Origin: a bacterium
GTDB taxonomy: Bacteria; Patescibacteriota; UBA1384; CAILIB01
NCBI GenBank assembly: GCA_037131105.1
Contig: JBAXRQ010000001.1
Coordinates: forward strand, 765,465-829,464
Direction of reading: 5' to 3'
DNA length: 64,000 bases
Both the position numbers and the translations under genes were made by a program. This document shows, piece after piece, positions 22,536-28,498 of the stretch; position 1 is the stretch's first letter, and each line of letters opens with the position of its first letter. The notes under the pieces are model-generated. The model was not told where the DNA came from and did not search any database. It worked only from the letters and a program-made list of their open reading frames with translations.

Positions 22536-23102
22536 TCAGTGGTGCCTCAAATACTGGACAAGCTTATGCAAGCTTACCTCTGCAAAGTGCCAGATAGGTC
22601 CCAGAACTGGCCATGCCTGAATTAGAAGAATGATGAGCGCTAGACCAAGAATAATCCACCACAGCCCAATCCAGAGCTTGTATCTCCAGGCAGACTTTAG
22701 GGAATTTGTTTCTATAAGTATTTTACCAGCAAGAAAGCCATCGGGGTTAATCCTGATCTTATAAGCCCCTTGAGAGCTATCAATCGGCTTTTCAATGGCA
22801 AAACCCCTCATTACTAGCGCTTCCATCACTTCTTTAGAAAAGCCAACAATGAAGTCTATCAATCTTTGAGCACTTGCATCACCGGCCGCAAGTCGTGCGT
22901 TGAACTCTCTCTTTAATAGGTCTTCAATATTCTCCTTAGAAATATAAGAGCCTACGAACTTATGATCTGGCCCCGCCGCCCACATCAAAGCAGCTTTTTC
23001 AGAGTCCCAGATGTCTTTAGTGGCAATTTCATGCTCAGCGTCAATAAGACGCTGGTAAACGTCGATTCTTCTGAAAAAGCTCGGAACGATTGGTAAATCC
23101 AT
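22536..23102 (-). CDS. hypothetical protein with C-terminal TM helix
   Basis: 188-aa ORF; hydrophobic C-terminal segment. Confidence 0.45.
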   Translation of the reverse strand: MDLPIVPSFFRRIDVYQRLIDAEHEIATKDIWDSEKAALMWAAGPDHKFVGSYISKENIEDLLKREFNARLAAGDASAQRLIDFIVGFSKEVMEALVMRGFAIEKPIDSSQGAYKIRINPDGFLAGKILIETNSLKSAWRYKLWIGLWWIILGLALIILLIQAWPVLGPIWHFAEVSLHKLVQYLRHH

Positions 23103-23108
23103 AAGCCG

Positions 23109-24008
23109 TTAAATAGGTACTTCCTCAAGCTCTAGGCCCTCTACAATAGGCTCATTCACACTTGACTGAGGAATGTAGACATCTTTATTCATTCCTTCAT
23201 CTACACCCACATATTGGGCTTCTCCATTCAGTATCTCCTCATACGGGCTGCAAGCAAAACAACCACCTCTAGAACAATCAAATAAGCGATCTTCTCTTGC
23301 TAGCTTTATTGACTGAGCAACATCTAGAACCTGTCGAGTACATTGCTCAATATCTGGTAACGCCACCTCTACTGGCTTATCCTGGCTGTCTAAATACCAG
23401 TAGCTGGCCTTGCTTACTTCTCTGTTTTGGCAGTGCTTCACTAATAAGTGATAGATCGGCAACTGTAAAGAACCAGCCTTTTCCTCGTTCTTTCCTGTTT
23501 TAAAATCTAATATGTGAACACTATCTGTTTCGGGGATGTATTCCAACCAGTCTACTTTGCCGCAGAGAATTATGTTGTCTTCTTCAGAAAGATAAAAGCT
23601 GGGCAACCCCTCAATCATCATCGACCTAGCAGGAATAGTTAGGGCTTTGTTTAGTAAAGGCCCAGGATGCTTCATTACTCTTTCCAGCATTTCACGCCCT
23701 CTTTGTTTAAACTCCTCTTCCTGTTCATTACTGGAGAACCCACCCCATTTACCTCTGACCTTTTCCCAGGCTAGATCATATTTGTCTAGAAGAGAGTCTT
23801 TTAAACGAACATCAACCGGTAGGGACTGTAGAGATTCTAAAACCCCATGTACCGCTTGCCCTAAAGCAAGAGAGGGCTGCATTAAAGTAATTTTTCTACC
23901 CGTCTGAGGATTCTTGTAAAGATTCTTCAGGTAATACGATCTTGGACACTTCAGATAGTCACCAATGGAGGAGTGGGAGAGCCAAACTGCATAGCGGGTA
24001 TCCTGCAT
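23109..24008 (-). CDS. PD-(D/E)xK nuclease, Cas4/RecB-like with Fe-S cysteine cluster
   Basis: N-terminal CPRSYY, catalytic ...VDWLE...ILDFKTGK, C-terminal CSRGGCFAC. Confidence 0.6.
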   Translation of the reverse strand: MQDTRYAVWLSHSSIGDYLKCPRSYYLKNLYKNPQTGRKITLMQPSLALGQAVHGVLESLQSLPVDVRLKDSLLDKYDLAWEKVRGKWGGFSSNEQEEEFKQRGREMLERVMKHPGPLLNKALTIPARSMMIEGLPSFYLSEEDNIILCGKVDWLEYIPETDSVHILDFKTGKNEEKAGSLQLPIYHLLVKHCQNREVSKASYWYLDSQDKPVEVALPDIEQCTRQVLDVAQSIKLAREDRLFDCSRGGCFACSPYEEILNGEAQYVGVDEGMNKDVYIPQSSVNEPIVEGLELEEVPI

Positions 24009-24022
24009 ATATTTCCTCTAGG

Positions 24023-27000: not shown

Positions 27001-27541
27001 CTTCTAGCGGAGAAAGTAATACTTGTAAATTTGTATCGAAAATTGCCAGTTTATAACCTGTTGATTTCTTAAGAGGATATCTTTCTATAGACACCGGAAT
27101 AGAAAAAAGTGGCTGATAAATGGGGCCGCTTTCTTCTTTCAGAGTTTCTTTATTTCCTTCCTCTACTTCTAGAGCCTCATTTTCTGGTTGTGGAAGACTG
27201 ACACGATAAAAGCCAAAGTTAAGCTTAAGCTCTTTAGTGAATTCATCGTTTTTAAATTTATTGTGGAGAGCCTCAATGCTCATGGCCAATTTCTTTTCTT
27301 CTTCGTATGCCACCCGTATTTCTTCTGACTGTTTTTCAAGATCAAGAGGCGAAAACTCATTAAAAGTTGGCAAATCAACTTCTTGGACTAAATCATCTTC
27401 AATTAAAAAACGTTCCAAGCTAAAGTATTTGCCTGGAAGTGTGACTGAGCTGTCTTGTGACCGCCGCAGAATAGGCCTCGTCGTTAAACGAAGATAGCCA
27501 AGACAGTACTTTAGATAATTTTGTAGGTTTATTTCGGACAT
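24023..27541 (-). CDS. SF1 helicase (Upf1/AAA_11-AAA_12 type) with C-terminal DUF559/Vsr-like endonuclease domain
   Basis: 1172 aa; Walker A GPPGTGKS; helicase motifs; C-terminal ...IAIECDGPTHF...D...E... Confidence 0.8.
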   Translation of the reverse strand: MSEINLQNYLKYCLGYLRLTTRPILRRSQDSSVTLPGKYFSLERFLIEDDLVQEVDLPTFNEFSPLDLEKQSEEIRVAYEEEKKLAMSIEALHNKFKNDEFTKELKLNFGFYRVSLPQPENEALEVEEGNKETLKEESGPIYQPLFSIPVSIERYPLKKSTGYKLAIFDTNLQVLLSPLEAVLGEALYYDAIEEIGKLEVSSELTLPTSDSEVLLKVWEIVRSRLKNTEALFDDDSFSLDEIQLALVPRVNYFLTEDLLALTKMEDTELEDTSLLAWASDDECDIDGQVPSEGQLYFPFVYDKYQLHALSVLDNRCAVIHGPPGTGKSQTISNLLCHLAAKGNKVLFVSQKPQALKVVKDRLRDLNIKYLFGYIPNPASKVLDYTDEQDGIAAQLANIEQYITALNYGATASTELEPVAREKAVLKDGLNGSIDEQRLFTSLEKELEELSSYSIEVQNANYFKSACTPEYVQELNSLITRSVELQQSIQAYSAESKENNAAWHERFGLITEKVRDRQIGDHLLAVYSYIEKSGFDGHGRLARGLSTIKFKLALSDTLGKVPREIRDYIDEIQKDNPTKHELLNRLESFNSFFDYYCNQAELSSLRKPVEEAIVKLGLKSFSDYQYLNSLLEGESCDLVVEKVLKANELRHKLSQLGKADANKIAGQFFKKELDRRMVVAQYLRNIISQRVKREYIRMPVRGALARLSKVLKKSKRAFKTFAALKNDPETTVIATDLVPIWLMELDDASRLLPLQKGLFDYVIFDEASQCNIAYALPAMFRAKKAVFVGDPNQMRDDSIKFKTNRSFEELALRYGIPQHMNIKPAQDSVQSVLDIAKLRGFRGTKLLNHYRSPRELIGFSNHYFYDGSLVPINTNYLTYQDTNRVMLVHEVSVDMDKEVSDDTNYSEALAIAEMIHSLREDEKYAEKSIGVLTFFNAQAELIRRVLEENNILEDRDNVKVAIIEGIQGDEKDIVLYSFAIKQPSQKRRYVALTGEGGEIAKALAEGRVNVAFSRGKLQVHCFTSMPVHEFPEGVWIKKYLQYVEENGEISFYSQQFNIDLCDSKFEIDFFGEVLNQLGKDYIVQNQIQSCGFRLDFVVTNSKNNKKIAIECDGPTHFKDELDESLGVYVESDEEREAILRSAGWEFYRVKYSDWTKRESDTKKYGEEILKLLQ

Positions 27542-27658
27542 AAAAAGAAGGGCTTCTTTGGGTCTAGCTTATCATATAAAAGTCATCAATAACATGAGTT
27601 TACCCAAGAAAATTACGGGGGGTATTGCATAAATTATACATAGTGGTATGATTTATAC

Positions 27659-28498
27659 ATGATTCAGCCATTCTTCTCAGACGACAACCTGATTCGCTTC
27701 ACCGAAGCGGACGAAAAGCACCAGATTGTAGAGGCTTTAAGCGTCAAGCGGTTTCGGGTGGCAGACACCGACATCAGCTACCGCCTCATCAACTACCTCG
27801 ACCAGGACGGACTGCTTGGCGACTCTCGGGAAGGCAAGGGCTGGCGCTCGTTCTCACTGAAGGAGCTCATTTACCTCTACCTCATCCTTGAGCTCAAGCG
27901 CTTCGGCTTCGCTCAGGTCAGCTTGCAGGAAGTCTGCGCCGCCGTCCTCACCAACCAAGTAAGCGGGAAGCCTGGCAAAACCTTCTTTGATATGGCCATC
28001 GGTCTCTGCTATGTCGGTGAGGAAATCCACATCATCGCCAAGCCGAGCGGCGACATGCTGTTTATGGTTCCTGGCTACTTCGGCCTTTTCCAGCAAGGCG
28101 GGCTCCTTTCTTCCGAAGGTGACAACTCTTACATCCATATTCTCCTTAACGACTTAACCAATAGGGCGCTAACCGCCTTACGGAAAAAGCCGGTGGATGT
28201 ACACAATTCCTTCTTCTCTCAGTACCTCGATTTAGTGGGAAAACCAGAGGAATCAGAGTCTAATAAAAAAGAGCAAAAAGTGTTGGATGCCCTACGGAAT
28301 AAAGATTACCTGAGCGTTGAAGTCAGGAAGAAAGACGGCGAGCTCCACACTATGAAGGTCGAGAAGCTGGAAGAATACCTGAGCAACCAAGAAGACATTA
28401 CCAACCTTATCAAGCAGAAAGACTACGCTGACATCCGGCTCGTTAAGCGGGATGGCAAGGTAGTCCATCTGGAAAGCAAAGACACCATCAAACTATAA
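27659..28498 (+). CDS. hypothetical protein
   Basis: 279-aa ORF, possible N-terminal DNA-binding region; upstream of the second recombinase. Confidence 0.45.
   Translation: MIQPFFSDDNLIRFTEADEKHQIVEALSVKRFRVADTDISYRLINYLDQDGLLGDSREGKGWRSFSLKELIYLYLILELKRFGFAQVSLQEVCAAVLTNQVSGKPGKTFFDMAIGLCYVGEEIHIIAKPSGDMLFMVPGYFGLFQQGGLLSSEGDNSYIHILLNDLTNRALTALRKKPVDVHNSFFSQYLDLVGKPEESESNKKEQKVLDALRNKDYLSVEVRKKDGELHTMKVEKLEEYLSNQEDITNLIKQKDYADIRLVKRDGKVVHLESKDTIKL

Follow-up and report, generated by a model that had tools for sequence, protein, structure and literature searches.

Two integrative elements probably stacked at a tRNA-Ala gene, the smaller with a putative anti-phage helicase–nuclease cargo

Large serine integrases use short common cores, and the targeting of tRNA genes is typical of tyrosine integrases (PMC10654092). 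The tycheposons of Prochlorococcus nearly all use tyrosine recombinases and carry replication modules, with a minority having a large serine recombinase (10.1101/2020.12.28.424599). Here we describe a 64-kb stretch of a bacterial chromosome (contig JBAXRQ010000001.1; ‘the window’, in whose coordinates positions are given) in which two large serine recombinase genes, rec1 and rec2, lie on either side of an operon encoding a helicase–endonuclease, a Cas4-like nuclease and a small protein, p188. The helicase resembles Hhe, an anti-phage protein reportedly described by Gao et al. in 2020. We consider it fairly probable that two elements sit in tandem at the tRNA-Ala gene of the window: element B, of 7.8 kb, with the helicase–nuclease operon as anti-phage cargo, beside an older element A. 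Judged by distant homology and context, the cargo would act against phages, with Hhe, ProA and PDC-S37 as its relatives. L-numbers denote relative loci and P-numbers relative proteins.

Both recombinases contain a catalytic Resolvase domain with the YxRVSTxEQ catalytic-serine motif and a Recombinase domain, which is the architecture of large serine recombinases and agrees with the preliminary description of this DNA. They share 31% identical residues, and the zinc ribbon of rec1 scores 24.0 against a cut-off of 25.3. They resemble Bxb1, phiC31 and CcrAB in the Resolvase–Recombinase(–Zn ribbon) arrangement, in having a short common core and in the placing of the integrase gene, which is terminal in the element. 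In contrast to these integrases, recombinases of the rec2 type target the CCA ends of tRNA genes, with an open reading frame (ORF) that reads through the attachment (att) site into the tRNA, and their elements are cassettes of 5.6–8 kb with a single cargo module. The 3’ end of the rec2 ORF falls inside the minus-strand tRNA-Ala(UGC) gene, on which the preliminary description was silent.

The junctions of the two elements are marked by the 9-mer TTGGTGGAC, the antisense of the last eight bases of tRNA-Ala plus one. In the whole 64 kb it has just three copies, all on the plus strand (starting at 10934, 22416 and 30254) and each at a junction; the chance expectation is 0.46 copies, and three copies were reached in none of 100 shuffles. 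Immediately to the left of the first copy lies an inverted repeat, I1, whose 26-nt arms are 88% complementary; read on the minus strand, a T run comes after it. We read the I1 hairpin and the first TTGGTGGAC as the original 3’ end and terminator of tRNA-Ala, displaced by the first insertion. At the second copy the final 14 codons of rec1 cross the junction between A and B, and a palindrome (30224–30255) lies within the right end of element B. The second and third copies (22416–22424 and 30254–30262), together with conserved flanking motifs, form the inner att pair for which the preliminary description had advised looking. Two serine recombinases are seen because two elements sit at the same tRNA-Ala 3’ (CCA) end: rec1 is the integrase that goes with the older neighbour, element A, and only rec2 belongs to the element of the cargo. 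The duplicate recombinases thus do reflect a composite structure, as had been suggested, in the form of a tandem with three att copies; the ideas that both recombinases bracket the cargo and that one element is nested in another were not borne out.

The limits of element B were obtained by comparison with the closest relatives of rec2 on long contigs, which are found in L074 (65% identity), L075 (52%) and L076 (53%); in all, the search for recombinases of the rec2 clade gave 1253 hits. In the left ends of all four elements TTGGTG is invariant, followed about 12 nt later by TTTTCnTGGAACCAAnTAGT, and TGGAACCAA is invariant as well; the left-end arm is a reciprocal best short-BLAST match between the window and L074. 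The right ends align over GAAAAGTCTCTTTTGGTG, after which the tRNA follows. Because the left and right ends of these siblings align with window positions 22416–22460 and with its right end, element B spans 22425–30262 and is a complete small integrative element. In keeping with a large serine integrase, a 9-bp copy of the core is present at each junction, flanked by end motifs that are conserved in the four elements. The sequence from 10943 onwards aligns in register with a diverged form of the rec2-type left-end motif, from which it follows that element A spans 10943–22424, and this divergence fits the low identity between rec1 and rec2.

Other signals at the junctions were set aside. The reconstructed attP of element B has only weak dyad symmetry, at 15 of 22 positions and centred on the junction, and comparable scores occur elsewhere in the window; the reconstructed attP of element A has no dyad symmetry. 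A longer, decayed tRNA-Ala remnant at the end of rec1 was rejected as not significant: its local score is 16, and shuffled sequences average 17. When 22300–22700 was scanned with Rfam at relaxed settings, nothing tRNA-like appeared, and the one hit, a CRISPR-repeat family at 14 bits (gathering threshold 36, E 9.4), is a sub-threshold chance match. At the rec1 end only the 9-mer and the comparative end motif stand.

The siblings L074, L075 and L076 share a backbone in the order 273–282-aa protein, small ORFs, recombinase, which is also the order of p279, p64 and rec2 in element B. In L074, L075 and L076 the corresponding backbone protein is 50%, 36% and 38% identical to p279, respectively, and p279 is a candidate regulator or directionality factor. 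It was overlooked in the preliminary description, which counted three genes between the recombinases where there are four ORFs (188, 299, 1172 and 279 aa) and a 64-aa ORF, even though the last position given there, 28498, is where p279 ends. The sibling elements measure approximately 5.6, 5.9 and 8 kb and have one recombinase each, whose ORF overlaps a tRNA gene in antisense by 41–65 nt (tRNA-Glu in L074 and L075, tRNA-Arg in L076). The cargo slot lies upstream of the backbone, and its contents differ from element to element (Table 1).

The same arrangement recurs around the helicase. Among 62 species-level loci from other species in which we analysed the context of helicase homologues, eight contain a serine recombinase ORF that ends in or runs through a tRNA gene; together with the window and L074–L076, antisense overlap of recombinase and tRNA is thus seen in 12 loci. 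The helicase of L025 is preceded, at a distance of 400 nt, by a weaker form of the left-end motif, which suggests a sibling element with, again, a helicase and a nuclease as cargo. No tRNA direct repeats of at least 11 nt were found in eight other helicase loci.

Table 1. Coordinates of the two elements, their junctions and genes, and of the cargo in sibling elements
Feature	Position	Strand	Remarks
17-nt copy of tRNA-Ala 3’ part, GGTGGACCCCACCGGAT	10782..10798	+	past native terminator
Read as native tRNA-Ala 3’ end and terminator hairpin, attL of element A	10889..10942	-	TTGGTGGAC at 10934-10942
Element A	10943..22424	.	~11.5 kb; AAA_5 ATPase, diversity-generating retroelement (DGR), DUF3768, p121, rec1
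rec1	20888..22468	+	526 aa; Resolvase, Recombinase, weak Zn_ribbon_recom (Pfam); large serine recombinase of element A
Inner att copy TTGGTGGAC, right junction of A and left junction of B	22416..22424	+	44 nt before rec1 stop
Left-end (P’) arm of element B, GACAGACATTTTTCGTGGAACCAAATAGTG	22425..22460	+	aligns with left ends of L074, L075, L076
p188	22536..23102	-	third operon gene; one C-terminal hydrophobic (predicted transmembrane) helix
Cas4-like PD-(D/E)xK nuclease, four cysteines	23109..24008	-	second operon gene; 299 aa; PDDEXK_1 E 2e-21
SF1B (Upf1-like) helicase with C-terminal MTES_1575/DUF559-type endonuclease	24023..27541	-	first operon gene; 1172 aa
p279	27659..28498	+	conserved backbone protein; weak MerR-like helix-turn-helix (MerR_1 E 0.004)
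p64	28551..28745	+	64-aa backbone ORF; 4-nt overlap with rec2 start; small ORFs at same position in relatives
rec2	28742..30319	+	525 aa; Resolvase, Recombinase (Pfam); large serine recombinase of element B
Right end (P arm) of element B	30224..30262	+	hairpin from element, then TTGGTGGAC at 30254-30262
tRNA-Ala(UGC), integration target	30255..30330	-	ARAGORN; Rfam tRNA 64 bits
Window cargo (element B)			helicase operon: helicase–endonuclease, Cas4-like nuclease, p188
L074 cargo	6481-8345 (L074)		PvuII-type endonuclease, helix-turn-helix controller, N6/N4 methylase
L075 cargo	5732-8241 (L075)		PLD-family protein and unknown genes
L076 cargo	3725-8129 (L076)		C5 methylase, Vsr, two unknown genes

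The first gene of the cargo operon encodes a helicase of superfamily 1 (SF1), with a core that is Upf1/IGHMBP2/Senataxin/Dna2-like (SF1B) by sequence and fold. Pfam matches to AAA_12 (E 1.8e-19), AAA_11 (E 1.1e-15) and, at the C-terminus, REase_MTES_1575 (E 4.6e-15), which has a DUF559/Vsr-type fold, bear out the SF1 helicase with a DUF559/Vsr-like endonuclease that had been recognised from the sequence. The Walker A (GPPGTGKS), DEASQ and RVNVAFSR motifs are intact, and the protein ends 12 residues after the restriction endonuclease (REase) domain. The N-terminal 300 residues are conserved within the family and matched no Pfam model. DUF4011 proteins from Acinetobacter plasmids are 25% identical over helicase residues 144–1153; in hhalign comparisons the N-terminal profile matched the Acinetobacter DUF4011 region with a probability of 13% (pairwise E 0.002, with a common PLxxIPVxI motif), and the full profile aligned with the DUF4011 protein over its C-terminal half alone. 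Because the structure model of the helicase is of moderate quality (pLDDT 69.7, pTM 0.45), we draw no inference from it on the N-terminal domain.

Like Hhe (NF042953), the window helicase combines in a single polypeptide an SF1 AAA_11/AAA_12 motor and a C-terminal MTES_1575/Vsr-type endonuclease, and in both the first RecA domain carries a long helical insertion. The two differ in length (1172 aa versus about 1800 aa) and in the N-terminal 300 residues, which are specific to the window family; DUF4011 and DUF3320, which the preliminary description had listed beside AAA_11, AAA_12 and the REase domain, were not detected by Pfam. A further difference is that helicases of the window type often have a separate nuclease gene downstream. 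The Hhe model scores 169.8 bits against a cut-off of 2000 and matches residues 735–1156 only. The best-scoring named models are ProA (NF058533) and PDC-S37, whose matches extend over the latter half of the helicase plus the REase domain. ProA scores 271.3 bits against a cut-off of 1500, with residues 411–1160 corresponding to profile positions 981–1695 of 1903, and PDC-S37 scores 262.8 bits, with residues 562–1160 corresponding to positions 748–1330 of the 1550-position model. In PADLOC the helicase matched PDC-S37 (E 1.6e-78), Hhe (E 8e-36) and the Mokosh helicases MkoA/MkoC. The comparison with catalogues of defence systems that had been recommended at the outset therefore yields partial matches to ProA, Hhe and PDC-S37, all far below the cut-offs. 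A literature search for ProA and PDC-S37 found no paper that describes them.

The helicase has more than 3000 homologues. The top 120 are full-length (about 1165–1200 aa) and 42–47% identical, except for one at 81%. The 62 species-level loci show a near-uniform identity of 40–46% and span Patescibacteria, Nitrospirota, Omnitrophota, Gammaproteobacteria, TM6, Chlamydiia and others; such uniformity across unrelated phyla fits horizontal spread. A search of 2.9 M viral contigs returned no relatives. In phage genomes the matches were only weak and partial (23–27% identity, the best covering 55% of the query), with no full-length relative among them.

The neighbourhoods of the helicase are not conserved: the 148 flanking genes comprise 156 Pfam families, of which PDDEXK_1, tyrosine integrases, AAA_15/AAA_21, Resolvase and PemK are the commonest, and AbiEii/OLD-type ATPases are also present. 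About 15 of the 62 loci have a serine recombinase within 8 kb, and in L060 an AbiLi-like gene adjoins the helicase. A same-strand gene immediately follows the helicase in 44 cases. Eight of these genes encode nucleases of about 500 aa that combine Cas4/PDDEXK with RNase_H_2/DUF2779, one of them fused to a second helicase, and two (those of the window and L020, 53% identical to each other) encode the 299-aa Cas4-like type; further types are RmuC (1/44), DUF2130 (2/44), MBL/RMMBL (2/44) and an AbiLi-like ATPase (1/44). The gene that follows the closest homologue of the helicase (81% identity) encodes RmuC. The helicase is thus often accompanied by a second nuclease gene, but different nucleases can fill that place. 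The exact partner is rarely adjacent and p188 never, so the three genes of the operon are not a conserved system; we had considered a three-gene system and rejected it, as no homologues of p188 or p279 stand beside the helicase in the 62 loci, p279 being part of the backbone.

Genes directly upstream of the helicase and on the same strand were recorded in several loci. In L007, L040, L046, L059 and L060 this is a gene of 60–75 aa for a helix-turn-helix (HTH) protein of the XRE type, and in L010 and L015 it is of the MerR/excisionase type; these HTH genes suggest transcriptional control of the helicase. In L031, L033, L039 and L041 a gene of about 300 aa takes this position. The one from L031, the only one tested, has no Pfam match, and in three of these four loci a tRNA-overlapping serine recombinase lies 2–6 kb away.

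The second operon gene encodes a PD-(D/E)xK nuclease of Cas4/RecB type, as the preliminary description had stated, and starts 14 nt after the helicase stop codon; a further 6 nt separate it from p188. Among 18 homologues the four presumptive iron–sulphur (Fe–S) cluster cysteines (C21, C245, C250 and C253) and D153, D168, K170, Q182 and Y186 are invariant. The protein shares with CRISPR-associated Cas4 (TIGR00372) the PD-(D/E)xK core, the QxxxY motif and the four cysteines, but its scores are below the cut-offs (33.3 bits against 65 for TIGR00372 and 18.8 against 22.7 for Pfam Cas_Cas4) and it belongs to a separate, solitary family. Neither a CRISPR array (by TRF) nor CRISPR repeats above the Rfam gathering thresholds were found in the whole window, and no cas genes, including cas1 and cas2, are present among the neighbours, in accord with the earlier view that the protein acts outside a CRISPR context. 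The family comprises more than 5800 proteins with 55–62% identity, and its named members all come from Patescibacteria (the candidate phyla radiation, CPR).

The host itself has another member of this family, P0131 (L067, 4024–4896), which is 77% identical, lies on the same 949-kb contig among acetyltransferase genes, and has a GC content at third codon positions (GC3) of 0.74, against 0.41 for the island copy. The high identity to the host copy and the contrast in GC3 indicate that the island gene is a captured copy, of foreign composition, of a conserved cellular nuclease. The Cas4-like protein is therefore not specific to CRISPR or to defence. The earlier proposal of a defence cargo accordingly stands as regards a cargo of a mobile element that is most likely defensive, and falls as regards the Cas4-like protein as a dedicated defence component: it is an extra copy of a conserved nuclease whose family is solitary and occurs chiefly in CPR bacteria. 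The third gene product, p188, which was correctly noted as a small membrane protein, belongs to a small family (65 representatives), relatives from which lie on contigs too short to reveal their context, and gave no family match in profile searches (Pfam, PADLOC, NCBIfam and PHROGs).

An SF1 motor together with a Cas4-like PD-(D/E)xK nuclease containing a four-cysteine Fe–S cluster is also found in Dna2 and in AddAB/AdnAB, and Dna2 is among the sequence and fold matches of the helicase. In the window, however, the two activities are encoded by separate genes, and the helicase bears an additional, restriction-type nuclease. The pairing of helicase and Cas4-like nuclease, which here is one of adjacent genes, is moreover not conserved across the helicase family.

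Base composition separates the locus from its surroundings. The window is chromosomal, with genes for ClpP and trigger factor, one 16S rRNA gene and several tRNA genes, and its GC content drops to 0.40–0.45 over 22–28 kb from about 0.55 in the flanks. Three layers of GC3 are observed: host core genes at 0.74–0.88; the backbone genes p279 and rec2 (0.61–0.67) with the genes of element A (rec1, p121, DGR genes and AAA_5; 0.52–0.63), together 0.52–0.67; and the cargo operon at 0.36–0.45, with the helicase having the lowest GC3 of the region. The exception in the backbone is p64 (0.40). Most of the nearest relatives of the cargo genes are from Patescibacteria, which suggests a CPR-like host. A prophage was rejected, as PHROGs gave no structural or packaging genes, and a promoter and terminator scan of 22.3–28.8 kb was uninformative, with fewer sites than in shuffled sequences.

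A mechanism can be proposed for both the movement of element B and the action of its cargo. The recombinase rec2 would integrate a 7.8-kb circle by crossover within TTGGTG, after which the element itself would supply the last bases of tRNA-Ala and the terminator hairpin (30224–30255). The excised circle would have the junction ...GTCTCTTTTGGTGGACGACAGACATTTTTCG..., and a synthetic version of it would read ...CGAAAAGTCTCTTTTGGTGGACGACAGACATTTTTCGTGGAACC...; p279 would serve as regulator or directionality factor. SF1B motors of the Upf1 type translocate 5’ to 3’ on single strands, PD-(D/E)xK domains of the Vsr/DUF559 type nick or cleave DNA, and Fe–S nucleases of the Cas4/AddB/Dna2 type process DNA ends. 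On account of these established properties of the domain families, we propose that the helicase would load on invader DNA and translocate 5’ to 3’ at the expense of ATP, that its C-terminal endonuclease would nick or cut this DNA, and that the Cas4-like exonuclease, a recruited housekeeping copy, would enlarge the breaks in a division of labour like that of AddAB or Dna2.

Several observations weigh against a tandem of elements with an anti-phage cargo. The 17-nt tRNA-Ala fragment at 10782–10798 is left unexplained by the tandem arrangement, the reconstructed attP has no inverted-repeat symmetry that would be significant on a genome-wide scale, and searches of a metagenome collection for an empty site or an excised circle with two tRNA-Ala patterns gave 0 hits each. 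The defence role is argued from distant homology and genomic context: the helicase matches Hhe and ProA only in part, at scores that fall far short of their equivalog cut-offs, and Pfam at E <= 0.01 did not detect DUF4011 or DUF3320. In the 62 other loci the exact Cas4-like partner adjoins the helicase once (L020) and p188 not at all, and the three members of the Cas4-like family that were examined are solitary, among unrelated housekeeping genes. Some orthologues of the helicase also lie among core genes, such as P0003, which has the gene for a HATPase_c protein after it; genes for RecR, YbaB and DNA polymerase III are among the core genes seen in such a context. The preliminary description had named orthologues in a core-genome context as evidence against a defence cargo; one such case turned up, while the contexts overall are unconserved and rich in integrases, toxins and defence genes.

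These last observations would be accommodated if the helicase and the Cas4-like nuclease formed an end-resection or repair machine, as a split Dna2 or a minimal AddAB, serving the host, or else recombination of the element, rather than immunity. The Upf1/IGHMBP2/Dna2-like core agrees with this, as do the RmuC gene downstream of the closest homologue, the RecR–YbaB–polymerase III neighbourhood, and an Fe–S PD-(D/E)xK partner drawn from a very conserved, solitary, mostly CPR family in housekeeping contexts. We nevertheless regard a repair function as unlikely, given that the helicase is patchily distributed at the same 40–46% identity across unrelated phyla, in unconserved contexts with integrases and toxins, that it has the lowest GC3 of the region, and that it occupies a slot which in sibling elements holds restriction-modification (R-M) systems. 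It also has a restriction-type endonuclease domain, its nearest named families are anti-phage, and the host already owns a copy of the nuclease. That the cargo serves the element itself, in circle replication or transfer, addiction or anti-defence, appears highly improbable. The cargo genes do travel with the recombinase backbone, and the replication modules of small integrative elements such as tycheposons often include a helicase; but genes for a replication initiator, a primase or transfer are missing from element B, members of the helicase family mostly have no recombinase in their vicinity, and a fused REase domain plus a second nuclease fit poorly with a replicative role.

A different view of the architecture would take the region as a single element of 19.5 kb (10799–30272), ending in the 17-nt repeat and mobilised by two co-operating recombinases in the manner of CcrA/CcrB of SCCmec (SCC, staphylococcal cassette chromosome), with the helicase genes as mere internal cargo. 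The repeat is exact (10782–10798 and 30256–30272, the former being the only other copy in the window of the latter), both recombinases score on the CcrA/B/C models, and rec1, rec2 and p279 are similar in GC3. Yet the CcrA/B/C scores of 46–89 bits are below the equivalog cut-offs of 700–900, and the recombinases, about 6.3 kb apart, with small ORFs of their own before each and an att copy between them, are not a CcrAB-type pair. A single element would also have to contain the internal junction copy and the conserved family end motif at 22416–22460, and the siblings have one recombinase and 5.6–8 kb. The layout of L074, in another organism and at a different tRNA gene, matches that of the window and includes a 20-nt tRNA copy at 5792–5811; since L074 has a single recombinase and still has this outer fragment, the outer repeat is not the working att site of this family. 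We therefore consider the single element quite improbable, and the 17-nt fragment, which lies about 135 nt past the native terminator, is probably an outer, older scar beside the tandem of elements A and B.

The individual pieces of the locus are all of known kinds, and neither the element family nor the habit of the helicase of swapping nucleases appears to be described in the literature that we searched. Tycheposons resemble these elements, by description only, as small cargo elements at tRNA genes with tandem arrays and partial tRNA copies (10.1101/2020.12.28.424599). We tentatively propose, as something quite possible though short of probable, that rec2 and its relatives form an undescribed family of defence-shuttling tRNA-end cassettes and, jointly, that the helicase–endonuclease acts in a two-component immunity with an interchangeable nuclease. 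Cassettes of 5.6–8.5 kb would insert at tRNA CCA ends, read through their own att site, supply the last bases and terminator of the tRNA, and stack in tandem. They would thereby shuttle single defence modules, of which R-M systems, a PLD nuclease and a helicase–nuclease pair have been seen, among small-genome uncultured bacteria; in the window the second nuclease of the two-component system would have been recruited from a housekeeping gene.

CRISPR is largely missing from CPR-type bacteria, and their phage resistance and gene exchange are little understood. If our proposal is correct, tiny tRNA-targeting cassettes in which one defence module can be swapped for another would give these organisms a tangible means of exchanging genes. 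The rec2-type recombinases may then be a source of compact integrases with short, predictable targets at tRNA ends, and the large helicase family would offer a natural series of pairings between a helicase and varied nucleases for the study of an Hhe-like mechanism. Current ideas are not overturned, as defence cargo on integrative elements is expected.

Element A contains a DGR at 13417–19447, consisting of two target genes, a reverse transcriptase, bAvd and a template repeat (TR). The TR is located at 17959–18079, and the variable repeats VR1 (18408–18528) and VR2 (13427–13547) form the 3’ ends of paralogous genes of 349 and 356 aa, with mismatches almost only at TR adenines. bAvd is encoded at 17558..17950 on the plus strand, and the reverse transcriptase is split over two minus-strand ORFs (17098..17628 and 16646..17101). 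At the left end of element A lies a gene for a 668-aa AAA_5 ATPase of the dynein-related/MoxR type (11324–13330); a small HTH protein seems to be encoded just upstream, by an ORF that is unconfirmed.

The 16S rRNA gene of the window (35874–37650) spans 1777 nt against a model of 1533 nt, with an insertion of about 240 nt. It is followed by tRNA-Met, tRNA-Pro, one unclassified tRNA and tRNA-Asp; the tRNA-Ile and tRNA-Ala genes are kilobases apart, and no 23S gene lies within the window. Several partial copies of the tRNA-Ile 3’ end adjoin the real tRNA-Ile gene (33321–33806), including a 99-nt tandem duplication (33487–33670) that resembles the 3’ half of tRNA-Ile but has about 41 nt inserted into the T loop, and this region looks like a second heavily used integration hotspot. 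A 33-nt motif, GCCGCTTYCTGCCCGAGCGCAGRAGCGCGAKCG, occurs at 10830–10862 and at 33393–33425; the copies are 91% identical, and both have a tRNA 3’ fragment at a distance of a few tens of bases.

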